Shown here: positions 22,293 through 39,446 of the stretch, one piece after another
Numbering within the stretch: the stretch's first letter is position 1
Layout: each line of letters opens with the position of its first letter
NCBI GenBank assembly: GCA_963776545.1
Contig: CAVZND010000001.1
Coordinates: 278,345 to 342,344, forward strand
DNA length: 64,000 nucleotides
Direction of reading: 5' to 3'
From: an uncultured Chloroflexia bacterium
GTDB lineage: Bacteria > Chloroflexota > Limnocylindria > Limnocylindrales > CSP1-4
Made by a program: the position numbers and the translations under genes
The notes under the pieces: generated by a model
Seen by the model: the letters and a program-made list of their open reading frames with translations, nothing else
Database searches by the model: none
Told to the model about the DNA's origin: nothing

Positions 22293-23107
22293 GCTCGCGC
22301 GACCGGCTCAGGGGCTAGCGGTCGTCGAAGGAGCGGCAGGCAGGCGGCGCAGATGGCGAACCCGCTGACCCACAGGACGGGCAGCGCGAAGGTCGCGCCG
22401 AGCGGCACGGTCCAGCGCCGGTCCGTGCGCGCACCCCAAGCGACGAGGACGAGCGCCAGCGGGAACCGGATGAGCAGCGGGATGGCGATCTGGAATTGCG
22501 CGACCGAGCCACCTTCGGGTGTCGTGGAGAGGAACTGGATCCAGTCCACCCAGAGGTCGCCATCCACGATGACCGAGACCCCCACGATGGCCGCGGTGAC
22601 CCCTAGCGCGATCGCCAGGGCCCGCCACTCACGCCGGACGGCGAACCAGACGAGACCGATCCCCGGCGTGACCTTGGTCAGTAGCACGAACCCCCACGTC
22701 CACGGATAGCGGAAGCCCAGCACGATCGCGGCCGCGATCCAGAGATGGATGTTCCCGTGATACAGCTCCAGCGCGACCGGTGGCAGGGCGAGGAGCCAGA
22801 GTGTCCGGACGCCTCGCTGACCGAGAAAGATGAGGTTCCCGACGAGGAGCGCGGTCCAGATCCAGAGGAACGACGGCCACGCGATGGCCCCGAACGGGTC
22901 GAACAACCGGGCGATCGGCGGCGAGTAGTTGAACGCCCCGAGCCCGCCTACGCCAGCGCCGTATGGGTCGTTACCATCGACCGCCCAGTAGGCGAACGCA
23001 TCGAACCCGAACGTGCCGGCCGACGGCGCGACGACGATGAACAGGTACGCGGCGAAGAGGAGGCCGGCGATGATGGCGCCGTCGCGGACGGCGCGGGCGG
23101 CGGTCAT
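22289..23107 (-). CDS. GT87/DUF2029-like membrane glycosyltransferase
   Basis: GFDAFAYW, FNYSPP, ELYHGNIHL, TKVTPG. Confidence 0.75.
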   Translation of the reverse strand: MTAARAVRDGAIIAGLLFAAYLFIVVAPSAGTFGFDAFAYWAVDGNDPYGAGVGGLGAFNYSPPIARLFDPFGAIAWPSFLWIWTALLVGNLIFLGQRGVRTLWLLALPPVALELYHGNIHLWIAAAIVLGFRYPWTWGFVLLTKVTPGIGLVWFAVRREWRALAIALGVTAAIVGVSVIVDGDLWVDWIQFLSTTPEGGSVAQFQIAIPLLIRFPLALVLVAWGARTDRRWTVPLGATFALPVLWVSGFAICAACLPLLRRPLAPEPVARA

Positions 23108-23193
23108 CCCGGCATCGTGTCAGCCGAGTCGGTCGTTGGACACCGAACCATCGTACCGCCGCGGACCGGTCGGACGACGTTGATACTTCGGCC

Positions 23194-24294
23194 GTGTCGA
23201 TGAACGGATCCCCGCCGGCGTTGCTCGGCCCGGGCACTCGGGCGACCGCGGCGGTCCGCCTGGTCCTGGCCGCCGCCGCCCTCGTCGTCTTCGTCGTGAC
23301 CGACCTCCAGATCGTGGCGAACGTCGCGCCCGCCGTCGATGTCGGGATCCCCCTGGCAGCGACGGAACGATGGTTGGCCGGCGAGTCGGTCTACCTGGAG
23401 GCGAGCTTCACGGATCCGGCCGCCTTCGGGCAACCCTTCCTGTACCCGCCGTTCGTGCTCCCGTTTCTCGTCCCGCTGACCGCCATCCCGGAGGAGCTGG
23501 CGCGGGCGATCGGGCTGGCCGTGACGTTCCTTGCGGCCGTGGTGATCTGCCGGCGGCTCGCGATCCCTTGGCTGATCGTGCCCGGGGTGTTGCTCTGGGA
23601 GCCCATGTTCGGTGGCATCTGGGGCGCGAACGTCCAGATGCTCCTCGTCGCAGCCTTCGTGGCGGCCTTCTGGATCGCCCCGTCCCGGCACGACCTTCGG
23701 CCGGAGCCGCGCGACCTCGACGCCCCCGGTGCGGTGACGCCGAGGATCGGCTGGTACGCGGCGACGGTCGCCAGCGTCAAGGCGACCCAGGTCCACGCGT
23801 GGCTCGCCGTCGCGTCCCGGGCCCCGAGAGCCGCGATCGTCGGGGCGTCACCGTGGGCGATCGTCGCCCTGGTCACGCTCCCGATCGTCGGGGTCGCGCT
23901 GTACGCCGACTGGCTGGCGCAGCTGTCGCGCGCATCGGATCCGAGCTGGGCCGCGATGGGTCCGTCTCTGCTCAAGTATCTCCCGGCGTGGACCGTGGCC
24001 GCGCTCACGCTCGCGTCGTTGGTCGTCGCCGTACGGCTGCGCGGACCGGACACCGGGGCGTGGCTCGGCATCCTGATGCTCCTGGTCGCGCCGAACATGC
24101 ATGACTTCAACGGGCTGCTGCTCCTGCCCGCCCTACTGCGCGTCCGGCGGGAGTTCGCCCTGCTCGCGGCGCTGCTCACGTCCACCGCCACCGCCGAGGG
24201 CTGGTGGCTCGGAATCGCCATCGTCGTCGTGGCCATGTTCGCCGGACGGTCCTGGCCGGATGCGTACGAACCGCGCCCCGCGTCGTGGCCCTGA
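23194..24294 (+). CDS. GT87/DUF2029-like membrane glycosyltransferase
   Basis: AVDVGIP..A..RWLAGESVY, FLYPPF, GANVQ, APNMHDF; start GTG 23194 or ATG 23200. Confidence 0.7.
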   Translation: MSMNGSPPALLGPGTRATAAVRLVLAAAALVVFVVTDLQIVANVAPAVDVGIPLAATERWLAGESVYLEASFTDPAAFGQPFLYPPFVLPFLVPLTAIPEELARAIGLAVTFLAAVVICRRLAIPWLIVPGVLLWEPMFGGIWGANVQMLLVAAFVAAFWIAPSRHDLRPEPRDLDAPGAVTPRIGWYAATVASVKATQVHAWLAVASRAPRAAIVGASPWAIVALVTLPIVGVALYADWLAQLSRASDPSWAAMGPSLLKYLPAWTVAALTLASLVVAVRLRGPDTGAWLGILMLLVAPNMHDFNGLLLLPALLRVRREFALLAALLTSTATAEGWWLGIAIVVVAMFAGRSWPDAYEPRPASWP

Positions 24295-24357
24295 TTCGGA
24301 CCCCAGCCGTTCCCCGCCGATAGGCGGAAGGTACTGGTCGGCGAGCCCGGAACCCGG

Positions 24358-24366
24358 TGCTACGCT
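24358..24366 (+). promoter_or_regulatory. Putative extended -10 TGcTACGCT
   Basis: 9 nt upstream of GTG 24376; no SD. Confidence 0.45.
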
Positions 24367-24375
24367 GCACCGGCC

Positions 24376-26028
24376 GTGCGTATCCCCCTACTGCTGTACG
24401 GGCTCGCCCTGGCCGTTCGGGCGGTCCTCATCTGGCACTTCCCGGAGCCGGCCTACCCCGATTCGTCCTACTACGTCGACGTCGCGCGGGCCCTCCATGC
24501 GGGGCAGGGCTTCAACGTCGACTTCATCTGGATCTTCGCCGAGGTCGGGGGCACGATCCCGGCCGACCCGACCCTGCCCATCCCGTCGAACGCGCACTGG
24601 ATGCCGCTCGCATCGATCGTCCAGGTGCCGTTCCTCGCCGTGTTCGGCGATGCCGCCTGGGCGTCGGCGGCACCGTTCGCCCTGATCGGCTCCCTGGCCG
24701 CACCCCTGACCTGGCTGATCGCGCGCGACGCGGGCGCCCGGTCCTGGATCCAGACCGGCGCGGGCGTCCTGGTCGCGGTCCCGCTGTTGTCGGCGGTCTA
24801 TCTCGTCCAGCCGGACAACTTCTCGCTCTACCAGCCGCTGGTCGCGGGCTCACTCTGGCTCGGCGCTCGCGGGCTCAAGGGGTCGGGCTGGGCCTTCGCG
24901 GGCGCCGGCGTGCTCGCCGGACTGGCGACACTGTCGCGCAACGACGGGCTCCTGGTGCTGGTCGCTCTCGGCCTGGCCTTCGCGTGGGATCGCTGGCGAG
25001 CCTGGCGCTCGGCCGGCGCCCGACGACCGGCGATCCCGTTCGCCGCGGCGGTGGCCTGCGTCGGGCTCTTCGGGCTCGTCATGGCGCCGTGGTGGGCGCG
25101 CCAGCTGGCCGTCTTCGGCTCGCTATCGCCATCCACGGCGTCGGGCAAGGTCCTCTTCATCCGTGACATCTCGGAGTGGAACAGCATCACGACGCCGGCC
25201 ACCCTGGAGCACCTCCTGGGCATGGGCGCCGGGCCGCTCATCGCCAGCCGGGTCGGGGGCCTGGCGGCCGCCGTGATGATCTATGCGACCCTGGTCGCGG
25301 GGTTCGTGCTCGCGCCGTTCATGCTCGTCGGTGGCTGGGCCCGACGGCGGTCGATCGACTTCGGGCCCTTCTTCGCCTTCACCGGTCTCCTGTTCGCGTT
25401 CTCCGCCCTGGTCTCCGCGGTCCATGTCCCCGGTGGCACGTTCATCCACTCGGCGATCGCGCTGGCGCCGCACTCCTACATCCTGGCCCTGGAGGGCATC
25501 GCGGTCGCGGTCGCGTGGGTCGCGCGTCGCCGGCCGACCTGGGACGCGGAGGCGGGCGCCCGGTTCTTCGGGACCGCGGCGGTCGTGTTCGCGGTCGTGT
25601 GTGCCGTGGGCGGCACGCTCGTGGTCCACGCCAACTGGGCGAAGCGGGCGGACCGGTTTCGCGCGGTCGCGGGCGCGCTCGACACGGCGGGAGCCCCGGT
25701 CAGCGACCGCGTCATGTCCATCGATGCGTCCGGCACCAGGTACTGGACCGGCCGTGGCGGCGTGGTCCTCGTCAACGACCCGCTGGACACGGTCGAGGCC
25801 GTCGCGCGAGCGTACGGCATCCACTGGCTCGTCCTCGACGCCGGTGACACCGTCACGGCGGCCGGGCCGATCCTCGACGACGACACCCGGCCGGCCTGGA
25901 TCGGGCCGCCCGTCTACACGGAGCCGCGGAGCGGCACGACGGGCGGCGAACGCTTCGGCGTGGGCGTGTACCCGGTCTGCCTCGAACCCGACGATCACCG
26001 CTGCGCGGCGACGGGGAGCGCCTCGTGA
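24376..26028 (+). CDS. GT39/ArnT-like (GT-C) membrane glycosyltransferase
   Basis: YPDSSYYVDVARAL..G.G, WMPL, GLATLSRNDG, PWWAR...FGS. Confidence 0.7.
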   Translation: MRIPLLLYGLALAVRAVLIWHFPEPAYPDSSYYVDVARALHAGQGFNVDFIWIFAEVGGTIPADPTLPIPSNAHWMPLASIVQVPFLAVFGDAAWASAAPFALIGSLAAPLTWLIARDAGARSWIQTGAGVLVAVPLLSAVYLVQPDNFSLYQPLVAGSLWLGARGLKGSGWAFAGAGVLAGLATLSRNDGLLVLVALGLAFAWDRWRAWRSAGARRPAIPFAAAVACVGLFGLVMAPWWARQLAVFGSLSPSTASGKVLFIRDISEWNSITTPATLEHLLGMGAGPLIASRVGGLAAAVMIYATLVAGFVLAPFMLVGGWARRRSIDFGPFFAFTGLLFAFSALVSAVHVPGGTFIHSAIALAPHSYILALEGIAVAVAWVARRRPTWDAEAGARFFGTAAVVFAVVCAVGGTLVVHANWAKRADRFRAVAGALDTAGAPVSDRVMSIDASGTRYWTGRGGVVLVNDPLDTVEAVARAYGIHWLVLDAGDTVTAAGPILDDDTRPAWIGPPVYTEPRSGTTGGERFGVGVYPVCLEPDDHRCAATGSAS

Positions 26029-27659
26029 CCCGGCGCGAGATGTGGCTGTCGGTCGCGCTCGTCTTTGTCGTCGCACTCGTGACGCGCGCGATCTTCGCCT
26101 CGCAGATCGTGTTCCCCAAGCCCGAGGACACCGCCTATTACGTCGGGGTCGCGCGTAACCTGCTGGACGGACGTGGCCTGGTCTCCGACGCCCTGTGGAG
26201 CTACCAGACGCCGCCGCTGATGTTCCCGCGGCCGGCTTTCGAGGTCTGGCTGCCGCTGCCGACGTTCCTTGCCGCCATCCCGATGGCCATCGCCGGTTCG
26301 ACGTTCCAGGCCGCCCAGGTCTCGTCGATCGTGGTCGGGGCGCTCGTGCCGGTCCTGGCGTGGCGTCTGGCCGCCGACGTCGCAGAGGAACGAGGCCTGC
26401 CTATCGGCCGGGCCCGGACCCTGGCCCTCGGCACGGGCCTCACGACGGCGTTCTACCTGCCCCTGCTCCTGCATTCCGCCCTGCCGGACTCGACGATGCC
26501 ATTCGCCGCGCTCGCCCTGGCGGCCTGCCTGCTGATGACCCGGATCGCGCGCGACCCGCGCGGCGCGCGCCTGACCGATCCACGCGTCATCGGCCTGGGA
26601 GCCCTCATCGGCCTGGCCGCGCTGACCCGCAACGAGGCCGCCTGGCTCGGGCTGACATGGGCGATGGTGGCCTGGCTCGCGCCGGCGACGACCCGGATCG
26701 AGCGAGTCCGGATGATCGGCCTCGCCGGGGCCGTCGCCCTGCTGGTCTTCGCGCCATGGGCGTGGCGCGACTGGGCGGTCTTCGGCAGCCCGTTGCCGGG
26801 CCAGGCGGCGGCGAACGCCCTGTCCGTGACGGGCTTCGACATCTTCGCCTGGAACGATCCACCGACGCTCGCTCGCTACCTCGCGGTCGGGCCCGCCCGG
26901 CTCCTCGAGATGCGGGTGGAGGGCCTGGCCCACAACCTGTTCTCCGTCCTGTTGCTGCCTGGGGTGCCGATCTCGCTGATCGGGTTCGCCGCGCTGCCGT
27001 GGCAGGGTCGCGACCGCGCCACCCGTCCGGTCGTCCTGCTGGGGCTGATGATGTTCCTCATCACCAGCCTGGCCTTCCCGGTCGCCACGACCTGGGGCAC
27101 GTTCCTGCACGCGGCGGGTCCGGTCCACGTCCTGCTCGTCCTCTCGGCGCTCCTCGCCCTGGATGCGGCCATCGCGCGCCTCGGCGCCAGGCTCGGCTGG
27201 ACGCGTCCGGTGGCCTGGCTCGGGGCGCTGCTCGGGGTCTTCGGGTCGCTCCTGTTCTCGATCGCCGTCCTGCCGTCATTCGGGAGTGGCTCGCGCGCGA
27301 CTGCCGCCCTGTACGAGGAGCTGGCCACGCGGATGGCCGCCATCGGGCATCCCCTTGACGCGTCGAGCGGGCCGATCATCACCAACTTCCCGATCTGGCT
27401 GGCCGAGACGCCCGGCGTGCGAGCCCTGGCCCTTCCGGCGGAAGGGCCCAGCGACATCGTCGATCTGGCCACCGACCCGGCATTCGCGGGGACGCAGCTC
27501 GTGATCGTCATCGGCGACGATCACGGCGGCTGGCCGGGCATCCTGGATCAGCCCGGGCCGGATGTCGCGTGCTTCCATGAGCTCGACCTGGGCCCAGGGC
27601 CGCCTGGTCGCGACGATGCGCTCGGCGACGTCCGGGCTTTCGAGATCGCCTGCCCATGA
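26025..27659 (+). CDS. GT39/ArnT-like (GT-C) membrane glycosyltransferase, paralogue of the preceding gene
   Basis: PEDTAYYVGVARNL..GRG, WLPL, GLAALTRNEA, PWAWR...FGS; GTGA overlap. Confidence 0.7.
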   Translation: MTRREMWLSVALVFVVALVTRAIFASQIVFPKPEDTAYYVGVARNLLDGRGLVSDALWSYQTPPLMFPRPAFEVWLPLPTFLAAIPMAIAGSTFQAAQVSSIVVGALVPVLAWRLAADVAEERGLPIGRARTLALGTGLTTAFYLPLLLHSALPDSTMPFAALALAACLLMTRIARDPRGARLTDPRVIGLGALIGLAALTRNEAAWLGLTWAMVAWLAPATTRIERVRMIGLAGAVALLVFAPWAWRDWAVFGSPLPGQAAANALSVTGFDIFAWNDPPTLARYLAVGPARLLEMRVEGLAHNLFSVLLLPGVPISLIGFAALPWQGRDRATRPVVLLGLMMFLITSLAFPVATTWGTFLHAAGPVHVLLVLSALLALDAAIARLGARLGWTRPVAWLGALLGVFGSLLFSIAVLPSFGSGSRATAALYEELATRMAAIGHPLDASSGPIITNFPIWLAETPGVRALALPAEGPSDIVDLATDPAFAGTQLVIVIGDDHGGWPGILDQPGPDVACFHELDLGPGPPGRDDALGDVRAFEIACP

Positions 27660-27670
27660 AAGGCGACCCC

Positions 27671-27676
27671 TATACT
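27671..27676 (+). promoter_or_regulatory. Putative -10 box TATACT for the kinase-regulator operon
   Basis: Near-consensus -10, 9 nt upstream of in-frame ATG 27686. Confidence 0.55.
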
Positions 27677-27685
27677 CGGGCGCAG

Positions 27686-28801
27686 ATGGAAGCACGGGCC
27701 GGGACGCAGTCCGGGGACAACCGCTTTGACGGGCTCCGTGCGGAAGCGAGTGCGGCCGTTGGCTACAGCGCCAATACGCTGCGCGGCATCCGCGAGCGAT
27801 ATCGCGAGGCCTACGGTGAGGCGCTCGTGCGCTGGCAGGCGCTCCGAGACCAGCTCGACGGCATCGACCGTGGCCCCGGCATGCGCCGGAAGTCGGCCGC
27901 CAAGGCGACGGCCGAGGAACTGGCCGCGAGTGCCGCCGAGGCCGGGGCGGACGATGCCCTCGAGCGCACCCTCCGCTCGGAGGTCGACCTGTTGATCGAG
28001 CAGCTTGGCGGCCACCAGTCCGAGTTGGCCAAGCTGGAGCTCGCCCAGAGCACGCTCGAGCGGACGTGGCTGTTCATGGAGCGCGGCGACGTCTCGCTGG
28101 TCAGCGAGGCGGACGGGCCGCTGACCTCGGGCGACATCCAGATGCGGATCGTCGAGGCGCAGGAGGCCGAACGGTCCCGACTCGCGCAGGAGATCCACGA
28201 CGGACCGGCCCAGGTGCTCGGAAACGCGATCTTCCAGATCGAATATGTCGAGCGGGTCCTGCCGACCGATCCACGGACCGCGGCGGCGGAGCTGGCGACG
28301 CTGCGGGAGATGCTTCGGCGCGAGCTGGGCACGCTCCGGGCGTTCATCAGCCTGCTGCGTCCGCCCTTGCTCGACGAGCTGGGCCTCGAGGGCGCGATCT
28401 TGGACACCATCGAGCACGTTCGCGCGATGACGGGGCTGGTCATCGCCGCGGACCTGGCGGCGCCGAGCCAGGCCCTCGACGATCGCGCGCGAACCGTGGC
28501 GCTGCGAGTCGTCCAGGAGGCCCTGCAGAATGTCCGCAAGCATGCAGCCGCCGGCAACGTGACCGTCAGCACGTCGCTCGACGGGGATACCTGGACCCTT
28601 GAGGTGCGCGATGATGGCCGTGGCTTCGATGCTGGGGCCGTTGCGGCCAGGGGCCGGAGCAACTTTGGCCTCCAGTTCATGCGCGAGCGCGCCGAGTTGA
28701 TCGGGGCTCGCGTGGACGTTCGATCGCGACCGGACGGCGGGACCGTCGTGCGGCTGTCGATCCCAATCCATGACATGGCGAAGCAGAGGGAGAGCAGATG
28801 A
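27686..28801 (+). CDS. Cytoplasmic HisKA_3 sensor histidine kinase, DegS-like
   Basis: Coiled-coil N-terminus with no TM; ERSRLAQEIHDGPAQ, LDELGL, QEALQNVRKHA, DDGRGFD, FGLQFMRERA, GGT; alternative start 27656. Confidence 0.9.
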   Translation: MEARAGTQSGDNRFDGLRAEASAAVGYSANTLRGIRERYREAYGEALVRWQALRDQLDGIDRGPGMRRKSAAKATAEELAASAAEAGADDALERTLRSEVDLLIEQLGGHQSELAKLELAQSTLERTWLFMERGDVSLVSEADGPLTSGDIQMRIVEAQEAERSRLAQEIHDGPAQVLGNAIFQIEYVERVLPTDPRTAAAELATLREMLRRELGTLRAFISLLRPPLLDELGLEGAILDTIEHVRAMTGLVIAADLAAPSQALDDRARTVALRVVQEALQNVRKHAAAGNVTVSTSLDGDTWTLEVRDDGRGFDAGAVAARGRSNFGLQFMRERAELIGARVDVRSRPDGGTVVRLSIPIHDMAKQRESR

Positions 28802-29544
28802 GTGCAGTCGACTACGGCGGGCCCGAGCGCCGAAGAGGCGGGCCAGATCGGCGGAACGTCGGGGATCGGACTCGGATCCTGATCGTCGACGACCACGCCC
28901 TCTTCCGCGTCGGGATCGCCAACATCCTGAGCCGGGAGCCCGACCTGGACATCGTCGCCGAGGCGGACGACTCGCGGAGCGCCATCGATCGCGCCATCGA
29001 GACCTCGCCCGATATCGTCCTCATGGACCTCTCGCTGCCGGCGCCCGGCGGCATCGAGACGACCCAGCGCATCAAGCGCGAGCTGCCCTCGACGGCCATC
29101 ATCGTGCTCGCCGTCAGCGAAGACGAGGACGCCCTGTTCGATGCGATCAAGGCCGGTGCCGCGGCCTTCATCCTGAAGGACGTCGGGCCCGATGACCTCG
29201 TCACGATCATCCGCCGGGTGGTCGCCGGCGAGTACCTCATCAACGACAAGGTCTTCGCAAAGCCGGCCGTCGCCTCGCGCGTCCTCAAGGAATTCCGAGA
29301 GTTGGCGGTCTACGGCCAGGAGGCCGCCCCGATCTTCGCGCCGCTCTCACCGCGCGAGGTCGAGATCCTCGACAATATCGCGCAGGGCATGACCAACAAG
29401 CAGGTCGCCTACGCCTTGTCGATCAGCGAGCAAACGGTCAAGAATCATATGAGCTCCATCCTGCGCAAGCTGTCCGTCAACGATCGGACCCAGGCGGTCG
29501 TCTACGCGATGCGCCAAGGCTGGATCCGGATGCCGGAGGACTGA
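28798..29544 (+). CDS. NarL/DegU-family response regulator (REC + LuxR HTH)
   Basis: LIVDDH, VLMDL, FILKD, LSPREVEIL..IAQGMTNKQVA..LSISEQTVKNH. Confidence 0.95.
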   Translation: MSAVDYGGPERRRGGPDRRNVGDRTRILIVDDHALFRVGIANILSREPDLDIVAEADDSRSAIDRAIETSPDIVLMDLSLPAPGGIETTQRIKRELPSTAIIVLAVSEDEDALFDAIKAGAAAFILKDVGPDDLVTIIRRVVAGEYLINDKVFAKPAVASRVLKEFRELAVYGQEAAPIFAPLSPREVEILDNIAQGMTNKQVAYALSISEQTVKNHMSSILRKLSVNDRTQAVVYAMRQGWIRMPED

Positions 29545-29585: not shown

Positions 29586-30851
29586 ATGACCGACGCTTCG
29601 ACGACCGAACCGACCACCGCCGACGCCCCGGCGACCGAGGCCCCGCCGGCCGAGGCCCCGGAGGTCCCCGCCCCGCGAACCCTGGCCGAGCTGTCCACCC
29701 GCCTGGCGGCGGAGGTCGAGCGCCTGGACGGCGAGCTCGGTGAAGTGGACCTGCTGGTGACGCAGGCCACCACGGAGGCCGCCCGACACGAGAGCCGCCG
29801 GAACAGCACGGCCGAGAAGCTCTCGACCCTCACCAGACAGGGCGAGTCCAACGAGCTCCTCGACCTGAGCGCCCAGCTCACGTCCCTCACCAAGCGTGCC
29901 GCACTGATGGAGTCGCAGGTCGACGTCCTCGAGGGCAAGCGTCGGGCCCTCGCCCGGCACCGCGAGGCGATGTCGTTGTATGCCGATGCGGTCGCGGCGA
30001 TGGACCCTTCGACGCCGGTGGCGTCAGCGCAGACGGCCGCCAAGGGCGGACGGAAGTCGGCAGCGTCCGACGGCGAGACGATGGCTCCGGCCGTCTCCCG
30101 CCTCGTGCTCACCGGCCAGGAGGACCTGCGGCGCGAGATCGCCCGGGCGATGCATGACGGGCCGGCTCAGAGCCTGACGAACATCATCCTCCAGGCGCAG
30201 ATCGTCGAGCGGCTCGTGGCCAAGGACCCGGCCGCGGCGCTCGGCGAGGTCCATCAGCTGATCGGCATGGTCCAGCGGACGCTCGAGGCCACCAAGACGT
30301 TCATCTTCGACGTGCGACCCATGGTCCTCGACGATCTCGGCCTGGTGCCGACGCTCCGGCGATCCGCGCGCGAGCGCGGGCGCAAGGCCGGTGTCGCGGT
30401 CGACTTCGACTCGATGGGCCAGGACCGCCGGCTCCCGATGGACCTCGAGAGCGGGCTGTTCCGCATGCTCGACGAGGCGCTCGTCGGGTATCTCGAGCGA
30501 TCGCCGACCCGCATCTCGATGCGCCTCGACTGGTCCGACCAGATCGAGGCCCGGGTGCATGCCGAGCGGACCGGCGACACGGAAGCCAAGCCGGCGCCTG
30601 AACCCGCTGAGGCCCCCGCCCCGACCGGTGCGGATCTCCCGCCGGCGCTCGCGGCGATGATGGAGGACCGTCGGGCCGACGCCCGCGACGCCGCGGAGAC
30701 GGCTCGACGCGATGCGATCGTCGCGTTGCCCGTCCCGATCTGGCAGGAGATCCAGAGCCGAGCCACGACGCTCGGCATCCTCGCCGACCTGTCCGACGAC
30801 GGATCCGAGCTGCACCTGGTCGCTGAAGCTCCCGTCCCCGCGGAGCGATGA
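29586..30851 (+). CDS. DegS-like HisKA_3 protein with degenerate ATP-binding domain
   Basis: Coiled coil, IARAMHDGPAQSLTN, RPMVLDDLGL; N and G boxes not recognisable. Confidence 0.8.
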   Translation: MTDASTTEPTTADAPATEAPPAEAPEVPAPRTLAELSTRLAAEVERLDGELGEVDLLVTQATTEAARHESRRNSTAEKLSTLTRQGESNELLDLSAQLTSLTKRAALMESQVDVLEGKRRALARHREAMSLYADAVAAMDPSTPVASAQTAAKGGRKSAASDGETMAPAVSRLVLTGQEDLRREIARAMHDGPAQSLTNIILQAQIVERLVAKDPAAALGEVHQLIGMVQRTLEATKTFIFDVRPMVLDDLGLVPTLRRSARERGRKAGVAVDFDSMGQDRRLPMDLESGLFRMLDEALVGYLERSPTRISMRLDWSDQIEARVHAERTGDTEAKPAPEPAEAPAPTGADLPPALAAMMEDRRADARDAAETARRDAIVALPVPIWQEIQSRATTLGILADLSDDGSELHLVAEAPVPAER

Positions 30852-30852
30852 C

Positions 30853-31020
30853 GTGGGCCGACTGTCCCGCGTGCGCGGGCAGGGACTGGTCGAGTACGGC
30901 CTGATCCTCGTCCTGACCGTCGTCTTCACGGTCGTGATCCTTGGCGTTTTTGGCGGAACGGTGGCCGATGTGCTCGCACGAATCGGGGAGGCGATCGACG
31001 CCGCGACGGGGGGTACTTGA
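30853..31020 (+). CDS. flp: Flp family type IVb pilin 1
   Basis: GTG 30853 after GGAG; G|QGLVEY then hydrophobic helix; 55 aa. Confidence 0.8.
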   Translation: MGRLSRVRGQGLVEYGLILVLTVVFTVVILGVFGGTVADVLARIGEAIDAATGGT

Positions 31021-31132
31021 CGGCTTCCGGCCGAACCCCGCACGAACGTGGCTCGGGCGCAACAGAGGGCCTCCGGTAAGTCCGGGCACGTTCGGTACCA
31101 TCGTGCTAGTGCTTTCCTGGAGCACCTCTTCA

Positions 31133-31138
31133 TATAGT
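31133..31138 (+). promoter_or_regulatory. Putative -10 box TATAGT for flp2 (no clear -35)
   Basis: Near-consensus hexamer about 50 nt upstream of ATG 31189. Confidence 0.45.
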
Positions 31139-31188: not shown

Positions 31189-31359
31189 ATGGCGCTCTTC
31201 ACTTCGTTCCTCGCTTCCCTTCGCCGGGACGAGGAAGGCCAGGGTCTCGCGGAGTACGCGCTGATCCTCGCCCTCATCGCGATCGTCGCGATCGTCGCCC
31301 TGATCTTCCTGGGCGGCCAGGTCAGCACCATCCTGAGCACGGTCGGCGACTCGATCTAG
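31189..31359 (+). CDS. flp: Flp family type IVb pilin 2
   Basis: AGGAGG SD; EEG|QGLAEYALILALIAIV; 56 aa. Confidence 0.95.
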   Translation: MALFTSFLASLRRDEEGQGLAEYALILALIAIVAIVALIFLGGQVSTILSTVGDSI

Positions 31360-31382: not shown

Positions 31383-31423
31383 AAGACCGCCGGGCCTCCT
31401 GAGGCCCGGCGGTCTTTCGTTTT
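31383..31423 (+). terminator. Intrinsic terminator after flp2
   Basis: Perfect stem AAGACCGCCGGGCCT/AGGCCCGGCGGTCTT followed by a T-rich tail. Confidence 0.85.
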
Positions 31424-31546: not shown

Positions 31547-31714
31547 ATGTCCCCGCTTCATGCTCTTATCTCGTCCTTCCGTCGGGAAGACGGCCAGGGT
31601 CTCGCGGAATACGCGTTGATCCTCGCCCTCATCGCCATCGTGGCGATCGTGGCACTCATCTTCCTCGGCACCCAGGTCAGCACCATCCTGAGCACGATCG
31701 GCGATTCGATCTAG
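31547..31714 (+). CDS. flp: Flp family type IVb pilin 3
   Basis: GAGGAGG SD; EDG|QGLAEYALILALIAIV; mature part differs from flp2 at 2 residues. Confidence 0.95.
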   Translation: MSPLHALISSFRREDGQGLAEYALILALIAIVAIVALIFLGTQVSTILSTIGDSI

Positions 31715-31819: not shown

Positions 31820-31847
31820 TTGACACGTACCCCCCTCGACCTATGGT
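31820..31847 (+). promoter_or_regulatory. Sigma70-type promoter for flp4
   Basis: TTGACA-N16-TATGGT. Confidence 0.6.
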
Positions 31848-31911: not shown

Positions 31912-32103
31912 ATGACCGCGCACCCGCGTCTGGTCGCCATCGTCCGACGGATCCGACAGGTCGATGGCCAGGGCCTGGCTGAATACGCACTTATCCTCGC
32001 GCTTATCGCCATCGTCGCTATCGTCGCCCTTATCTTCATGGGTAGCCAAGTCAGCGATAAGCTGAGTGTCATCGGAAGTCAGCTGGAATCGGTCAAACCG
32101 TAG
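31912..32103 (+). CDS. flp: Flp family type IVb pilin 4
   Basis: AAAGGAGGTG SD; VDG|QGLAEYALILALIAIV; divergent C-terminus. Confidence 0.92.
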   Translation: MTAHPRLVAIVRRIRQVDGQGLAEYALILALIAIVAIVALIFMGSQVSDKLSVIGSQLESVKP

Positions 32104-32169: not shown

Positions 32170-32366
32170 CGGGCCCTCCTCCGGGCGTCGCGCACCAGGC
32201 CGCAGCCGGCCGCGCGCCTCCCGGTCCGACCTTTCAGGAAACCTTGCGTCACGCACGGATTCCTGCCGTTTCCTCCTAATGGTCCTAGGCCTTTCGTATA
32301 GTCGCGAGCCTCCGGGCCGATGCTACAGTGGTGCCACCTGTCACAAGCCTCTCGGGGAGTAACAAC

Positions 32367-33263
32367 TTGAAGCGCTCTAATCGTCTGGTCCTGCTTGTCG
32401 GGGTCTTTCTCGCGATCGTTGCCTTCGTCGGGATCCTCCTGCTCGTGCGCCAGCCGGCGGACGACAAGGAGAAACCCCCGACCACCGGATTCGTGCTCAT
32501 CGCGACCGTCGACATCCCCCTGTCCGGGAAGATCGAGGCGTCCGCGCTCAAGCGAACGGAGCTCCCGCTCGACAGCATCCTCCCGGGCGCGTTCTCTGAC
32601 GTGTCCCAGGTCGTCGGGAAGATCGCCCGCCAGCCGGTCGCGACCGGCGCCCAGATCACTGCGGACACCATCACCGGTGGCGCGCAGGGCGAGATCCTCG
32701 ACATCGTGACGCCTCCGGGCCTGCGCGCCATCGCGGTCCAGGTCGACCAGGTCACCGGCGTCGGCACGGTCATCAAGACCGGCGACTACGTGGACCTCGT
32801 CAGCGGCGTGACCGGCGACAAGTTCCCGGTCATCACGGTCAACCCGGCCGATGATTCGGTCAGCGTCGTCAGCGGACTCAACAGCACCAGCGTCAAGATC
32901 CTCCTGCAGGGCATGCAGGTCCTTGGCACCCTGTTGCCGCCCGCCGCGGAGACCACCACGAACGACAACAGCGGCGACAACGCGGACCAGGCCAACGCCT
33001 CGCAGCCGGGCACGGCCCTCAACGGCCAGCAGCAGATCGTGATCCTCGCGGTCGACGCCCAGCAGGCCGAGGTCATCAAGTTCGCCCAGCTCGACTCGTC
33101 CATCACGCTCGTGCTCCGTTCGCCGGACGACTTCCTCGATCCGGTCACGCACGAGCCTGTCGCGCCGCTCCCCAACAGCACGACCGGTGTCAACCTCAAG
33201 GAACTCGTCGACCGGTACGGGGTCGTCCCGCCGGAAGTCGTCGAGACCGTGACCCCGCGGTAA
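32367..33263 (+). CDS. cpaB: Flp pilus assembly protein CpaB/RcpC
   Basis: TTG start after GGGGAG; N-terminal TM, SAF-like domain, PPGLRAIAVQVD..TGV...IKTGDYVD. Confidence 0.9.
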   Translation: MKRSNRLVLLVGVFLAIVAFVGILLLVRQPADDKEKPPTTGFVLIATVDIPLSGKIEASALKRTELPLDSILPGAFSDVSQVVGKIARQPVATGAQITADTITGGAQGEILDIVTPPGLRAIAVQVDQVTGVGTVIKTGDYVDLVSGVTGDKFPVITVNPADDSVSVVSGLNSTSVKILLQGMQVLGTLLPPAAETTTNDNSGDNADQANASQPGTALNGQQQIVILAVDAQQAEVIKFAQLDSSITLVLRSPDDFLDPVTHEPVAPLPNSTTGVNLKELVDRYGVVPPEVVETVTPR

Positions 33264-33413
33264 CCAAGTCCGAACACGGCCGAACGTCGGCCGAGCTGAG
33301 ACAGCCCAGACGCGGCGGGCGCGGCGGACCCAAAGGGTCGCGCGCCCGCCGTCGTCGAGGCCTTCGATCGATCCTCGGATCGATCACCTAACGAAGAGCA
33401 AGATCAGAGCGAG

Positions 33414-34673
33414 ATGGCCGACCAGATCCGAGTCCTCGTCGTCGACGACATCCCAGAGACCCGCGATCACCTCACGAAGCTGCTGAGCTTCGAGAGCGAC
33501 ATCGACGTGGTCGGATCGGCCTCGTCCGGCCGAGAGGCGCTGGACATGGCCGGCAAGCTCACGCCCGACATCATCCTGATGGACATCAACATGCCGGACA
33601 TGGACGGCATCACGGCGACCGAGCAGATGGCCGCGACCCTCCCCTCGGCGGCCGTCGTGATGATGTCGGTCCAGGGCGAGGCGGACTACCTGCGACGGTC
33701 CATGCTGGCGGGAGCCCGGGAGTTCCTCGTCAAGCCGTTCAGCAGCGACGAACTCACCGCGTCGATCCGACAGGTCCACTCCCGCGAACGCGACAAGGCC
33801 AGCCGCATGGCGGCCGTCCCGACGGCCGCCACCGGCGGCGGGGGCGCTCCGAATGATGAGTACGCCGGGGAGCCGGGCCGGGTCGTCGCGGTGTTCAGCC
33901 CCAAGGGCGGCGTCGGCCGCACGACGGTCGCCGTCAACCTGGCGGTCGCCGCGGCCACGGACCTCGGCAAGAAGGTCGTGCTCGTCGATGCCTCGTTCCA
34001 GTTCGGGGACGTGGGTGTCCTGCTCAACCTGAATCCCAAGAGCAAGTCGATCGCCGACCTCCTGCCGCAGCTCGAGGCGAACGAAGCAGACGCCCTCGAC
34101 GTGTTCATCATCGACCACAGCTCCGGCGTGCGGGTCCTGCTCGCCCCGCCGACACCCGAGACCGCCGAACTGATCACACCGGCCGCCGTCCGCAAGGTGA
34201 TCGAGGGGCTCCGCCGCAACCACGACCTGGTGGTGGTGGACTGCACCGCATTCTTCAACGACACCACGCTGGCGATCCTTGACATCGCCGACGTGATCCT
34301 GACGATGCTGAGTCTGGAGATCACGAGCATCAAGAACATGCGTCTGTTCCTCGAGGTCGCCCAGCAGCTCGGATACGAGTCGGGGAAGGTCCGCTTGATC
34401 CTCAACCGCGCCGATTCGGCGTTGGGCATCCGCGTCCAGGACGTCGAGCAATCGATCGGCCGCAAGGTCGACGAGACGATCGTCAGCGACGGTCGCAGCG
34501 TCGTGTACGCCCTCAACCGTGGAGTACCGTTCTACCTGTCCAACAAGGAGGCCCAGGTCTCCCAGGACGTCCTCCGCCTCGCTCGGGCGGTCACTGGTGA
34601 GCGCCTGAGCGTGCCAGCCGGCGAAGACAGCCGGAAGTCCAACCAGAAGAAGTCCTTGTTCGCGTGGCGATGA
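33414..34673 (+). CDS. cpaE: CpaE/TadZ-type receiver domain + MinD/ParA-like ATPase
   Basis: REC (VVDD, LMDINMP, LVKP) followed by SPKGGVGRTT, QFGD, LLAP. Confidence 0.9.
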   Translation: MADQIRVLVVDDIPETRDHLTKLLSFESDIDVVGSASSGREALDMAGKLTPDIILMDINMPDMDGITATEQMAATLPSAAVVMMSVQGEADYLRRSMLAGAREFLVKPFSSDELTASIRQVHSRERDKASRMAAVPTAATGGGGAPNDEYAGEPGRVVAVFSPKGGVGRTTVAVNLAVAAATDLGKKVVLVDASFQFGDVGVLLNLNPKSKSIADLLPQLEANEADALDVFIIDHSSGVRVLLAPPTPETAELITPAAVRKVIEGLRRNHDLVVVDCTAFFNDTTLAILDIADVILTMLSLEITSIKNMRLFLEVAQQLGYESGKVRLILNRADSALGIRVQDVEQSIGRKVDETIVSDGRSVVYALNRGVPFYLSNKEAQVSQDVLRLARAVTGERLSVPAGEDSRKSNQKKSLFAWR

Positions 34674-34717
34674 ACACGGCCGTAGTGAGCCCCTCGGGGC
34701 GAAAAGGGGTGTAGGCG

Positions 34718-36127
34718 ATGTCCCTCCTGAAGCGGATCGAGAGCGCTCGACCGGGGTCTACGGGACCCGACGCAGGGCCGGGCGCTCCCGGCTCGAACCT
34801 GCCGGTCGCACCGGGTGGTGCGCCGCCCACGCCGACCTCGCCCAGGCTGACCAGCCAGGCGCCGGTCCGCGAGTCGTTCCGGGACGTGAAGTTCCGCATC
34901 CAGAACCGGGTCATCCAGGACCTGGATCCGAAGCTCGACCTGTCCAACCAGGTCGAGGTCCGGCGCCAGATCGAGGAGATCTTCGGCAAGGTCATCGACG
35001 AGGAAGGCCTCGCGCTGACCCGGGCCGAGCGCGTCCGGATGCTGGAGCAGATCACCGACGAGATCATCGGCCTCGGGCCGCTCGAGCCGCTCCTGCGGGA
35101 CGAGTCGATCACCGAGATCATGGTCAATGGCCCGCGCCAGGTCTACATCGAGCGCTCCGGCAAGCTCGAGCTGACGAACGTGGTCTTCCAGAACGACGAC
35201 CACGTCATGCGCATCATCGACCGCATCATCGCCCCGATCGGTCGCCGGGTGGACGAGTCGAGCCCGATGGTCGACGCCCGCCTGACGGACGGCTCCCGCG
35301 TCAATGCCATCATCCCGCCGCTTTCATTGGTCGGCCCGGTCATCACCATCCGCAAGTTCTCCGCGTCGCCCTTCACGGTCGACGACCTCATCCGGTTCGG
35401 GACCGCCACGGCCGAGATGTTCGACTTCCTGCGCGCCTGCGTGGAAGCTCGCCTGAACATCTTCGTGTCGGGCGGCACCGGCTCGGGCAAGACGACCACC
35501 CTCAACGTCCTCTCCTCGTTCATCCCGAACGACGAACGGATCGTCACCATCGAGGATGCCGCCGAGCTGCAGCTCCGCCAGGAGCACGTGGTGACGCTGG
35601 AGTCCCGCCCGCCGAACATCGAAGGCAAGGGCGCCGTCCCGATCCGCGAGCTCGTGCGCAACGCCCTGCGCATGCGGCCCGATCGCATCATCGTCGGGGA
35701 GTGTCGTTCCGGTGAGGCCCTGGACATGCTCCAGGCCATGAACACCGGCCATGACGGCTCGATGTCGACGGGTCACGCCAACAGCCCGCGCGACATGCTC
35801 TCGCGCCTCGAGACGATGGTCCTGATGGCCGGCGTGGACCTGCCCCTGCGGGCCATCCGCGAGCAGGTCGCCTCCGCCGTCGACCTCATCGTCCAGCAGA
35901 GCCGTCTCAAGGACGGGACCCGCAAGATCGTGAACATCACCGAGGTCCAGGGCATGGAGGGTGATGTCATCGTCATGCAGGACGTGTTCGTCTTCGAACA
36001 GACGGGCGTCGTCGAAGGCAAGATCCAGGGCCGGCTCAAGCCGACCGGGATCCGCCCCAAGTTCGTCGAGAAGTTCGAGGTCATGGGCATCAACCTGCCG
36101 CCTGGCCTGTTCGGCTTCACCTACTAG
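34718..36127 (+). CDS. cpaF: Tad pilus assembly ATPase CpaF/TadA
   Basis: GLGPLEPLL, SGGTGSGKTT, TIEDAAEL, LRMRPDRIIVGE, AMNTGHDG. Confidence 0.97.
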   Translation: MSLLKRIESARPGSTGPDAGPGAPGSNLPVAPGGAPPTPTSPRLTSQAPVRESFRDVKFRIQNRVIQDLDPKLDLSNQVEVRRQIEEIFGKVIDEEGLALTRAERVRMLEQITDEIIGLGPLEPLLRDESITEIMVNGPRQVYIERSGKLELTNVVFQNDDHVMRIIDRIIAPIGRRVDESSPMVDARLTDGSRVNAIIPPLSLVGPVITIRKFSASPFTVDDLIRFGTATAEMFDFLRACVEARLNIFVSGGTGSGKTTTLNVLSSFIPNDERIVTIEDAAELQLRQEHVVTLESRPPNIEGKGAVPIRELVRNALRMRPDRIIVGECRSGEALDMLQAMNTGHDGSMSTGHANSPRDMLSRLETMVLMAGVDLPLRAIREQVASAVDLIVQQSRLKDGTRKIVNITEVQGMEGDVIVMQDVFVFEQTGVVEGKIQGRLKPTGIRPKFVEKFEVMGINLPPGLFGFTY

Positions 36128-36148
36128 GCCACGGAAGGAGCATCGCCC

Positions 36149-37156
36149 GTGGATACCATGACGCTCGCGATCGCCGGAGTCGCCGCCCTGGCGATCCTGC
36201 TCATCGCGATCGGCGTCGCCACCTCCGGCGGATCGGGGATCTCCGACCGCCTCGAGCGTTACGCGTCGAACCGCCCGGCCAAGCCCGCCCCGAGCGGCCA
36301 GGGCGCCATCGCCGACATGATCACCCAGAGCGCGACCCTCGCCAGCCTGAACAAGGTCGTCGAGAATCGCGACTTCGGCGCCAATCTCCAGCGGGAGATC
36401 GCCCGCGCCGACCTGAAGCTCAAGCCGTCGGAATACCTGCTCATCTGGATCGGCTGCACCGTCGGTGTGCCGGTCGCGATGCTCCTGCTGTCGGTCTTCC
36501 TGCCGACGCTCGGCAACCCGATCTTCCTGCTGATCGGCGGACTCGTCGGCTTCTTCATCCCGCGCTTCTGGCTCGCTCGTCGGCGGAACGGCCGCCTCGG
36601 CGCCTTCAACAAGCAGCTCCCGGACACGATCACCCTGATCGCGAACGCGCTGCGCGCCGGGTCGTCGTTCCTGCAGGCCATCGAACTGGTCGTGCGCGAG
36701 TCACGCCCGCCGATCTCCACCGAGTTCGGCCGGGTCATCCGCGAGGTCAACCTCGGCCTGCCGTTCGACCAGGCCCTCGAGAACATGGTGCGGCGCGTCC
36801 GATCCGACGACCTGGAACTGATGGCAACGGCCATCTCGATCCAGCACCAGGTCGGCGGCAACCTCGCCGAGATCCTCGACTCCATCGCGTTCACGATCCG
36901 TGAGCGTGTCCGCATCAAGGGCGAGATCCGGACCCTGACGGCGCAGCAGCGCCTGTCCGGCTACGTCGTCGGCTTCCTGCCGATCGGGCTGGCGGGCTTC
37001 CTGTTCATCGCGGCCCCTGACTTCATGTCACCCATGTTCACGAAGCCACCGGAGGTCGTCGGGCTTCCGGGCGGCGTCATCATCCTGCTGCTCGGCGGAT
37101 TCATGATGTTCATCGGCTTCATGATCATCCGCCGCATCGTCGACATCGAGGTCTAG
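36149..37156 (+). CDS. tadB: Tad membrane platform protein TadB (T2SS F-like)
   Basis: QLPD....ANALRAG, GGNLAEILD, IRTLTAQ. Confidence 0.92.
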   Translation: MDTMTLAIAGVAALAILLIAIGVATSGGSGISDRLERYASNRPAKPAPSGQGAIADMITQSATLASLNKVVENRDFGANLQREIARADLKLKPSEYLLIWIGCTVGVPVAMLLLSVFLPTLGNPIFLLIGGLVGFFIPRFWLARRRNGRLGAFNKQLPDTITLIANALRAGSSFLQAIELVVRESRPPISTEFGRVIREVNLGLPFDQALENMVRRVRSDDLELMATAISIQHQVGGNLAEILDSIAFTIRERVRIKGEIRTLTAQQRLSGYVVGFLPIGLAGFLFIAAPDFMSPMFTKPPEVVGLPGGVIILLLGGFMMFIGFMIIRRIVDIEV

Positions 37157-37160
37157 CCCG

Positions 37161-38093
37161 ATGCCCATCCTGCCCATCGTCATCGCGGCCGTCGCGGCCG
37201 GCGCGATCCTGCTCATCTTCATCGGGCTCGCCGGCAACTCGCCGGTCGACCCGGTCCAGGCCCGCCTGACCCAGCTCGGGTCCATGCAGGCCAAGAACCT
37301 CGAGGAGCTGGAGCTCCAGGCCCCGTTCATCGAGCGGACCCTCCGCCCGCTGGCGTCGCGTCTCTCCAACAGCGTGTCGCGGGTCACCAGCACGTCGTTC
37401 TCGGATCGCACCGAGAAACGGCTGGCCCTGGCCGGCAACCCGGGCGACCTTCGCGTCGCCGACTGGCTCGGCATCAAGGCCATCGGCGCCATCGTCGGCG
37501 GCATCCTGTTCTTCCTGCTGTTCGTGGTGCTCGGCGTCCTGAAGTTCCCGGTCCTGATCGGGTTCGTCCTGACGATCGTCGGCGTCGCGTTCGGTTACAC
37601 GATCCCGGAGTTCTGGCTCGGTGGTCGGGTGCGCAAGCGCCAGAAGGCCATCCTGATGATGATCCCGGACTCACTCGACCTCCTGACGATCTCCGTGCGG
37701 GCCGGCCTCGGCTTCGATGCGGCGCTCGGACGCGTCGTCGAGAAGCTCAAGGGCCCGCTGTCCGATGAGTTCCGTCGGGCGCTGGCCGAGGTCCGCGTGG
37801 GCAAGGCGCGGCGCGAAGCCCTTCGGGACATCGTGCCTCGGACCGAGGTCCAGCCGCTGACCAACTTCATCGGCGCGATCATCCAGGCCGAGCAGTTGGG
37901 TGTGTCGATCTCCAAGGTGCTCCAGGTCCAGTCCGAGCAGCTCCGCATCGAGCGGCGCCAGCGGGCTGAGGAGCAGGCGGCGAAGGCGCCGATCAAGATG
38001 CTGTTCCCGCTCGTCGGCTGCATCTTCCCGTCGCTGTTCATCGTCATCCTTGGCCCGGCCATCATCCTCATCATCCAGAACCTGACGATCTGA
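37161..38093 (+). CDS. tadC: Tad membrane platform protein TadC
   Basis: PDSLDLLTISVRAGLGFD, QAEQLG, AEEQAAKAPIKMLFPL..CIFP. Confidence 0.93.
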   Translation: MPILPIVIAAVAAGAILLIFIGLAGNSPVDPVQARLTQLGSMQAKNLEELELQAPFIERTLRPLASRLSNSVSRVTSTSFSDRTEKRLALAGNPGDLRVADWLGIKAIGAIVGGILFFLLFVVLGVLKFPVLIGFVLTIVGVAFGYTIPEFWLGGRVRKRQKAILMMIPDSLDLLTISVRAGLGFDAALGRVVEKLKGPLSDEFRRALAEVRVGKARREALRDIVPRTEVQPLTNFIGAIIQAEQLGVSISKVLQVQSEQLRIERRQRAEEQAAKAPIKMLFPLVGCIFPSLFIVILGPAIILIIQNLTI

Positions 38094-38509
38094 CCACGGA
38101 CACCACACCGGACGCCCGGGCGACCGCGCTGGTCGCCCGGAACGTCACGCGCGGGACCGTGCTGGCCGACCAGGTCGAGGTCGCCGCGAGTCTCTGGGGC
38201 AAGTTCATGGGCCTGATGGGGCGCGCCGCGCTGGCGCCCGATGCCGGCCTCTGGCTGCCCGACAGCAACGGCATCCACATGATGTTCATGCGGTTCCAGA
38301 TCGACGCGGTGTTCCTCGATCGACCCGACCCTGCCGACGGCACGGCTCGCCGCGTCGTCTCCGTCCATCGCTCCCTCCGGACATGGACCGGGATGGTGCC
38401 ACTGGTCCGTGGCGCTCACGGCGTCCTCGAGCTACCGGTCGGCGCGATCGAGCGCACCGGCACGCTCGTCGGGGACGTGATCGCCCTGGAGAGCCCGACG
38501 CCCGACTGA
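38090..38509 (+). CDS. DUF192 family protein; start uncertain
   Basis: GLMGR, IHMMFMRFQIDAVFLD, VLELPVG; frame and expected N-terminus (RNVTRGTVLA) extend upstream of GTG 38159 to CTG 38090. Confidence 0.8.
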   Translation: MTTDTTPDARATALVARNVTRGTVLADQVEVAASLWGKFMGLMGRAALAPDAGLWLPDSNGIHMMFMRFQIDAVFLDRPDPADGTARRVVSVHRSLRTWTGMVPLVRGAHGVLELPVGAIERTGTLVGDVIALESPTPD

Positions 38510-38606
38510 CCGCGTAGCCCTCGACCCGTTGCTTGCGCCGCGTTCATCGCCTCGTATCCAGTCATCAGGCGACTGGTAAGTGATCAGAGCGGACGGGGAA
38601 CCGCCG

Positions 38607-39356: not shown

Positions 39357-39446
39357 GATCCGGCGACGATGACGTGACGCCCTTACCGATGGCTTACGTA
39401 CGCGGCGCATAAGCCGCCGTGCAGCCTCGCGGGCGATGATTGGCGC

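Follow-up and report, generated by a model that had tools for sequence, protein, structure and literature searches.

A clade-limited [DE]RR-repeat tail on a NarL/DegU-type regulator of a Limnocylindria Flp/Tad pilus locus: a candidate c-di-GMP-binding element beside a degenerate phospho-switch

The window considered here, i.e., the whole stretch of 64,000 nucleotides analysed from contig CAVZND010000001.1 (assembly GCA_963776545.1) of an uncultured Chloroflexota bacterium, contains a gene for a NarL/DegU-type response regulator that carries an arginine-rich tail in front of its receiver domain. As the preliminary description of this DNA had stated, the gene lies ahead of a Flp/Tad locus, with Flp pilin genes, cpaB, REC-cpaE, cpaF, tadB and tadC downstream (Table 1; REC, receiver). 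The host lineage is Candidatus Limnocylindrales (Chloroflexota), the NCBI name carried by a homologue of the regulator with 91% identity. In the protein, Pfam recognizes a receiver (Response_reg, PF00072, residues 27-139, E 9e-25) and a LuxR-type helix-turn-helix (HTH; GerE, PF00196, residues 182-237, E 1.3e-22), so that the motif does sit at the N-terminus of a REC-LuxR protein, as first proposed. This combination of domains is the one that defines the NarL/FixJ (LuxR-HTH) class, and NarL, VraR and LiaR are the nearest solved structures both by sequence and by fold; against the 25 NCBIfam models listed, none of the protein's scores reaches the cut-off. An AlphaFold2 model built on a 59-row alignment is confident for the receiver and the HTH and predicts residues 1-18 to be disordered (pLDDT < 50).

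Translation of positions 28798-28854 gives MSAVDYGGPERRRGGPDRR, the start of the 248-residue open reading frame (ORF), exactly as the extension had originally been read. The ATG at 28798 overlaps the stop codon of the upstream kinase gene (ATGA), has a Shine-Dalgarno-like GAGGGAGAG just 5′ of it, and is the only in-frame ATG, GTG or TTG from the previous in-frame stop to strand beta1. The sole possible start of the regulator precedes YGGPERRRGGPDRR, and a start 3′ of the tail was rejected, the window holding no such in-frame codon. Metatranscriptome contigs of relatives (share 0.08-0.10) span the regulator, one of them over the start and the tail, and are uninformative on translation or expression level.

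Table 1. Features of the kinase-regulator-tad locus (positions in the window)
Feature	Position	Strand	Remarks
DegS-like HisKA_3 + HATPase_c kinase	27656..28801	+	sequence shows H, N and G1 boxes
Ribosome-binding site and ATG overlapping the kinase stop (ATGA coupling)	28786..28801	+	sole in-frame start ahead of the receiver
NarL/DegU-type response regulator, 248 aa (N-terminal tail, receiver, LuxR HTH)	28798..29544	+	ORF, Pfam, PDB
Tail motif Y6-R19, YxGP[DE]RRR-GGP-DRR	28813..28854	+	one Cle-like half-site and a second DRR; predicted disordered (residues 1-18)
Receiver	28876..29214	+	D31, D32, D77, K127 intact; Ala105 (29110-29112) in place of the switch Thr; Arg60 (28975-28977)
LuxR/GerE HTH	29341..29508	+	almost no change in the recognition helix between Limnocylindria and outgroup Chloroflexota
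Second kinase-like protein	29586..30851	+	HisKA_3 H-box retained, no HATPase_c match
Small divergent Flp-like prepilin ORF (GQGLVEY)	30853..31020	+	no NCBIfam match; starts one base past the stop of the second kinase-like gene
Imperfect inverted repeat YRGKAC-N4-GKSCYA, then TT	31093..31110	+	activator position; candidate regulator site
TATAGT, -10-like hexamer	31133..31138	+	22 nt behind the inverted repeat
Three Flp pilin genes	31189-31359, about 31547-31714, 31912-32103	+	Flp_Fap under the curated cut-off
Terminator-like hairpin in the pilin region	31383-31416		
Promoter-like TTGACA-16-TATGGT in the pilin region	31820-31847		
tad genes cpaB/rcpC, REC-cpaE/tadZ, cpaF/tadA, tadB, tadC	32328..38093	+	

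The conservation of the tail was followed in 158 orthologues: 90 from the host's own family (f1), 29 from a second tail-bearing family (f4), 20 from a third, tail-less one (f3) and 19 from outgroup Chloroflexota; a streamlined family (f2) and a further one (f5) were also sampled. Their N-termini were read from loci picked as best matches or by hand across genera, and constitute a non-random sample. Duplicates, the paralogues L022-L030, L072, L073 and L093, and the broken or truncated L019-L021 were removed; among the latter, the tail is present in both readable loci, and in two genomes (L019, L020) the frame breaks within the receiver, possibly through assembly errors. By genome, an orthologue occurs in 102 of the 108 sampled from f1, 59 of 66 from f3, 53 of 66 from f4, the single one from f5 and none of 42 from f2; five unpublished genomes enter the f3, f4 and f5 tallies, and that count alone. 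The tandem [DE]RR-x2-5-[DE]RR is found in 75/90 f1 and 29/29 f4 sequences, so the extension holds for two families, and it is absent from f3 (0/20) and the outgroup (0/19) as well as from the single f5 orthologue. The half-site [YF]xGP[DE][RK]R (residues 6-12 here) is restricted to f1 (67/90; 0/29 in f4, 0/20 in f3, 0/19 in the outgroup). The half-site is present in 116, and the tandem in 117, of the 120 best database homologues. G8, R11-R13 and D17-R19 never change across 35 tandem-type tails selected by hand, the flanks being variable, and the last DRR stands six residues before beta1 in 62/89 f1 and 20/29 f4 sequences. The linker between the [DE]RR units is mostly RGGx in f1 (69/90) and RGG in f4 (17/29).

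In the 67 f1 orthologues with a complete motif, its codons differ freely at the third position, which indicates that the constraint acts on the peptide; overlap or another DNA-level constraint was rejected as its source, the kinase gene ending at 28801 and the motif codons varying synonymously. Among the 2975 genes that a simple gene caller predicts in the host genome, [YF]xGP[DE][RK]R is present only in the regulator (1/2975; 0.24 expected from shuffles), and so is a tandem [DE]RR within the first 30 residues (1/2975); anywhere in the proteins, the tandem is not rare (6 observed vs. 3.7 expected). No Pfam or NCBIfam family spans the tail, and residues 1-24 yielded no usable match in the ESM Atlas. 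A profile of the 35 tails, run against 1.84 billion representatives, gave 44 matches, and the 27 inspected were all orthologues, fragments or frameshifted fusions, revealing no further tail carriers. Judging from these alignments, the tail is a real, conserved, translated and clade-limited addition to the regulator. That it should be a neutral appendage, or a tag for degradation or arginine phosphorylation, is scarcely probable: a disordered terminal segment, partly eroded in some genera, would suit such a role, but its residues are strictly conserved despite synonymous divergence, and a McsB-type ATP:guanido kinase domain is absent from 5/5 genomes, the Bacillus control being positive. On this last ground the arginine-phosphorylation tag was rejected.

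The Cle proteins carry tandem [YF]xGP[DE][RK]R motifs, mostly on stand-alone CheY-like proteins of Alphaproteobacteria (Nesper et al., PMC5677366), and their cyclic di-GMP (c-di-GMP) binding motif has been defined as DRR-x11-(R/K)RxxD, with Y163 and G165 important (Hee et al., PMC7382256). The tandem GP[ED]RR of the regulator had been described as Cle-like, and its first copy does fit: counting D and E as equal, 7/8 positions match CleD Y150-R157, which includes residues contacting Gua1/Gua3 (PMC7382256). Furthermore, the only match of the 30-residue N-terminus in the PDB is the CleD peptide 6SFT, with a non-significant E of 0.25. The second copy, RGGPDRR, has no aromatic residue. Indeed, two aromatic half-sites are found in 0/158 orthologues and the DRR-x11-[RK]RxxD spacing, even with x10-12 allowed, likewise in 0/158; because both are missing throughout, the tail is not a tandem Cle site. 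On its sequence, it is at most half a Cle site with a second DRR nearby, outside the Cle arginine-rich region (ARR) family.

The receiver has departed from the canonical pattern as well. The switch residue, Ala105 here and aligned to the Ser of NarL, is Ala in 84/90 f1 (Ser in 6/90) and 29/29 f4 sequences, i.e., in 113/119 orthologues of the tail-bearing families, and Thr or Ser in 20/20 f3 and 19/19 outgroup ones; in f4, 28/29 sequences lack the second acidic residue, too. The full catalytic set of five residues (DD, D, T/S, K) is kept in 6/90 f1, 0/29 f4, 0/20 f3 and 18/19 outgroup orthologues. A pseudo-receiver is defined by the absence of at least one of the five, and substitutions need not abolish phosphorylation (PMC12632262); by that definition the Ala makes the regulator a pseudo-receiver, and the loss resembles that of the Cle and VpsT pseudo-receivers. 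An arginine at the start of helix alpha2 (Arg60) is clade-specific (87/90 f1, 29/29 f4, 1/19 outgroup). In the f3 loci (L127-L146) the phospho-acceptor D77 is Glu in 20/20, the acidic pocket is lost, there is no tail and tad is not adjacent; the tail-less f5 orthologue (L275) also has a receiver whose degeneration differs from that of the tail-bearing families.

These observations bear on the arrangement first suggested, an AND gate in which a canonical, phosphorylation-activated regulator would also wrap a single chain around a c-di-GMP dimer, as Cle does. We consider it improbable. The first half-site matches Cle, D31, D32, D77 and K127 persist beside an intact-looking kinase in the host genome, a substituted switch residue may leave phosphorylation in place (PMC12632262), and c-di-GMP stimulates phosphorylation of DevR (review, PMC12564702); against this stand the 158/158 orthologues that lack both the Cle spacing and a second aromatic half-site, and the loss of the Thr, joined in f4 by that of the second acidic residue. 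The integration of phosphorylation into pilin control, which the preliminary description had envisaged, is doubtful because the switch Thr has become Ala in nearly all these orthologues.

Alternatively, the tail could be a protein-docking or intramolecular arm that binds no nucleotide, packs on the acidic beta4-alpha4 loop or the active site, the kinase or RNA polymerase, and offsets the lost Thr. The fixed spacing of six residues to beta1, the strongly acidic loop, the appearance of the tail together with the change from Thr to Ala, and the failure of the Cle geometry all speak for such an arm. However, the loop is equally acidic in tail-less orthologues, the unit recurs in unrelated proteins (see below), and what is conserved is D/E-R-R and Y-x-G-P, not net charge. 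Moreover, the second kinase-like gene (29586-30851) is present in f1, f3 and some outgroups and was not found in f4 loci, where the tail is retained; this protein was rejected as an obligatory partner of the tail. Altogether, we regard a docking arm as rather unlikely.

From the perspective of the regulon, the setting of the gene is older than its tail. Within about 10 kb downstream of the regulator, cpaF is found in 31/33 f1, 18/19 f4, 0/19 f3 and 6/20 outgroup loci, the f1 and f4 counts being made on loci of at least 4.5 kb (the remaining ones end early but show flp or cpaB/E), and this synteny across families and outgroup points to a tad linkage that precedes the tail; f3 and f5 genomes carry cpaF elsewhere. 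Expectation maximization on pilin upstream regions, with the window excluded, returned the ribosome site and an inverted repeat, YRGKAC-N4-GKSCYA-TT, about 20 nt ahead of a TAnnnT hexamer. This element passes a leave-one-out shuffle test in 27/31 f1, 17/17 f4 and 5/6 outgroup loci. A matrix built from f1 alone recovers 17/17 f4 and 5/6 outgroup sites, and one from f4 alone 18/31 f1 sites and 1/6 outgroup sites. We presumed a likeness to DosR-type boxes, which the literature search did not confirm. The regulator would bind this repeat, as suggested by its LuxR HTH, by synteny and by the placement of the element, which is that of an activator site.

In the host genome, the copy in the window (31093-31110) ranks third, and the eight best matches are all intergenic; other sites are at C2:18492(-), C1:271089(+) and C8:325203(-). 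The nearest genes downstream of the top sites include flp and those for a cyclase of HTH-GAF-GGDEF type, a second REC-CpaE, an HD-GYP protein, an MFS transporter and ACPS, and a GAF-GGDEF-EAL gene (contig C21), 627 nt from its match, is an uncertain target. With the flp-trained matrix, the element stands about 60 nt before the cyclase orthologue in 29/30 f1 loci, the host included, and before the HD-GYP orthologue in 13/29 (one locus was skipped). Control regions gave 0/11 for hpf, 0/25 for comFC, 3/45 for cpaB, 8/46 for the kinase and 4/78 for cpaE, and 57 of 2957 host genes reach an element score of 10. A strict pattern has 10 matches in five f4 genomes (reversed control 0), lying before four flp genes, one prepilin peptidase gene, three GGDEF genes and two unassigned ones, and 4 in five f1 genomes (two flp, the cyclase orthologue and a MerR-type HTH gene); it has none in four f3 genomes, one in f5 and none in five f2 genomes. 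A slightly different pattern gave 13 matches (control 1) in five outgroup genomes, before flp, cpaB, TadE, glycosyltransferase and secreted-protein genes; in these five related genomes, where numbers are small, none precedes a GGDEF, EAL or HD-GYP gene.

The diguanylate cyclase itself (L189:486-3413(-); C2:15482-18412 of the host genome) carries a MerR-like HTH at its N-terminus together with three GAF domains, and its promoter holds an extra conserved stretch between the element and the -10 hexamer, possibly a second operator. Weaker matches of the element occur at gene ends in the window, at 5705(-), 61320(-) and 44721(-), ahead of the genes of an unknown membrane protein, a protein with a PKD domain and an HTH protein of the XRE type.

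The four families that have the regulator all encode GGDEF domains. There are 16 in the host genome and 5-17 in each of 30/30 sampled genomes of f1, f3, f4 and f5, with none in 3/3 of f2, the family that lacks the regulator; since the tail-less f3 has them too, their presence is only a necessary condition. In a PilZ site, RxxxR precedes a beta-barrel that carries [DN]xSxxG. The regulator has no PilZ domain, and the spacing from R to R in its tail varies with the linker of 2-4 residues. PilZ is equally absent from 5/5 genomes and MshEN is found in 2/5, so known c-di-GMP receptors are scarce, and in the window no riboswitch for c-di-GMP or any other ligand matches Rfam at gathering scores.

The unit of the tail is found beyond the regulator. 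A back-translated DNA-pattern scan of GTDB genomes gave at least 119 loci, and among the matches listed 62 are Collinsella-type and off-frame, 31 are the regulator, nine contain a stop or Ser, eight lie in other non-coding-like frames and nine in coding-like frames of other proteins, one of the latter within a GAF strand and probably due to chance. YxGPDRR-x4-DRR lies in the P2-P3 linker of a CheA encoded beside cheD (L316:685-2796(+)); YxGP[DE]RR..DRR lies at the C-terminus of an MscS-type protein (L350:1479-2657(-), Massilia record), in a DRR-rich protein (L309:1069-1680(+), Sumerlaeaceae record) and in four small Planctomycetota-type proteins (L306:1230-1712(-), L319:1354-1761(+), L371 and L377). 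The latter belong to a family of at least 5212 homologues (sequence clusters) with a conserved C-terminal domain and no Pfam domain. In its top 120 members the Cle half-site is present in 106, nearly all have 6-8 [DE]RR units, and 110 have a second [DE]RR 2-5 residues behind the unit, as in the tail of the regulator; next to these genes one usually finds an endonuclease IV-like gene and those for adenylosuccinate lyase and a sigma-54 activator. These repeat proteins are candidate nucleotide-binding or sponge proteins. As it recurs in unrelated proteins, the YxGP[DE]RR-x-DRR unit is portable.

We propose that the regulator is a DNA-binding activator of an old Chloroflexota pilus regulon that gained its tail in two Limnocylindria families. 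The [DE]RR-repeat tail would bind c-di-GMP and fold upon binding, each unit reading a guanine pair as D154-R155-R156 of CleD do. The units being only 2-4 residues apart, a single-chain wrap of the CleD type is unlikely and the ligand would be held by the tails of two subunits, or by a tail and the receiver surface around Arg60, favouring the active dimer. Phosphorylation of D77 would have become a weakened or secondary input with the change from Thr to Ala, and control of cyclase and phosphodiesterase genes would close a feedback loop whose output is pilins and c-di-GMP enzymes. The scheme builds on what is readable in the sequences: the tail, its fixed distance from the receiver, the lost Thr, the tad synteny and an inverted repeat common to flp, cyclase and HD-GYP promoters. 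That a disordered c-di-GMP-binding tail partly takes the place of phosphorylation in a pilus/c-di-GMP regulon has, in our judgment, an even chance of being correct; binding of c-di-GMP by the tail as such, whether in this form or in the Cle-type AND gate, is somewhat more probable than its absence. The regulator may thus represent a new kind of c-di-GMP sensor.

A number of observations weigh against this proposal. Besides the missing Cle geometry, the substitutions Y163A, G165A and D172A or single-residue deletions in the loop of the Cle-derived peptide CSP lower its affinity about 2- to 40-fold, and peptides shorter than CSP do not bind (PMC7382256). Family f4 retains ERR-x2-3-DRR alone, without YxGP, and 15/90 f1 orthologues have a single [DE]RR-type unit. 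Across f1 and f4, D31, D77 and K127 never vary, the kinase looks intact, and the tail-less f3 has GGDEF and cpaF genes together with a receiver degenerate from D to E. The tail-bearing group lies on one side of one branch (support 83/67 in a 30-row tree); tail and Thr loss were probably acquired in a single event, and their co-occurrence carries no statistical weight as a correlation. The element precedes flp in 5/6 tail-less outgroups, and its assignment to this regulator is made by synteny in a genome with 37 regulator matches at E <= 0.001. Finally, c-di-GMP genes were found, by motif regular expressions, in 1/58 neighbourhoods of the Planctomycetota family, whose surroundings thus lend no support to a link with this signal.

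Arginine-guanine contacts are generic, and the tail might serve another guanine ligand or a nucleic acid: (p)ppGpp, cGAMP, the minor groove of DNA, or RNA by way of an RGG box, RRRGG being the commonest linker. Yet it is the linker that varies (TGR, QGA, KGA, RTMP, RSAP) while [DE]RR stays, and among the nucleotides tested CSP bound c-di-GMP only (PMC7382256), so that we hold such a ligand to be quite improbable.

A broader and more tentative generalization, which we hold to be less likely than not, is that short [DE]RR repeats, with or without YxGP, constitute a widespread and unannotated c-di-GMP-binding motif that is portable and includes the Cle ARR as one special case; in Limnocylindria it would have been grafted onto a pilus activator, where it would replace phosphorylation and close a feedback loop through cyclase and phosphodiesterase. 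The same idea would flag the CheA linker and the Planctomycetota family as receptors.

As for the surroundings of the locus, behind the tad cluster (38108-40800) come DUF192, comFC-like and hpf genes, an arrangement that resembles the Bacillus gene order degSU-comF-hpf and is interrupted here by an HTH/UPF0102-like gene at about 38607-39377(-). On the 5′ side of the kinase there is a run of membrane glycosyltransferase-like genes (17837-27659), the last of which (a PMT_2 match) is conserved beside the kinase class-wide.

The tail, the architecture and c-di-GMP control of tad in Chloroflexota were not found in the literature searched, most subscription papers and supplements lying outside that search, in which no c-di-GMP receptor for Chloroflexota turned up either. 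Should the tail bind, it would provide a receptor candidate for this phylum, indicate that a motif of about 14 residues, shorter than the minimal CSP peptide, suffices, probably across a dimer, and supply a searchable receptor signature for other phyla. The promoter element independently defines a candidate regulon of pilins, a prepilin peptidase, a second TadZ/CpaE, cyclases and an HD-GYP enzyme in an abundant uncultured lineage. If the tail does not bind, an atypical but conserved regulator remains, its tail unexplained and the interest modest.

In terms of known systems, REC-LuxR proteins that bind c-di-GMP are already described, with other sites (VpsT, DevR). VpsT of Vibrio cholerae is likewise an atypical REC-LuxR (FixJ/LuxR/CsgD) regulator of surface-attachment genes, in which c-di-GMP stabilises the dimerisation that we propose here (PMC3359988, PMC12632262). 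It binds, however, through a receiver-region motif and an extra, sixth helix behind the receiver (R134), and not by a terminal DRR tail, and it has neither a DegS-like kinase trio nor tad linkage. DevR of Mycobacterium smegmatis is a NarL-family protein that combines c-di-GMP binding with phosphorylation by a kinase, so this concept is not new; its binding was mapped to the C-terminal domain, its regulon is another, and the review describes no ARR-like tail (PMC12564702). Binding by RisA is described as hypothesised only (PMC12805831, PMC5020355) and was not used as a precedent.

With NarL, VraR, LiaR and DegU (PDB 1A04, 4GVP, 5HEV), the regulator shares the fold, the domain order, a HisKA_3 partner and a 16-bp inverted repeat beside the -35 position; it differs from them by the extra tail, the switch Ser/Thr changed to Ala and, in f1, a second kinase-like gene without ATPase domain. 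The closest parallel to the tail is the Cle ARR and its peptide CSP (CleA-E of Caulobacter; PDB 6SFT): the first unit fits the Cle half-site and continues with RR as in CleD, the tail is predicted to be disordered like apo-CSP (PMC7382256), and it is joined to a receiver with altered phospho-switch residues. Cle proteins, in turn, are stand-alone CheY-like receivers with a C-terminal ARR made of two aromatic half-sites in the DRR-x11-[RK]RxxD arrangement, whereas here, in Chloroflexota, an N-terminal tail with one half-site and 2-4 residues between its [DE]RR units precedes a DNA-binding REC-LuxR protein.

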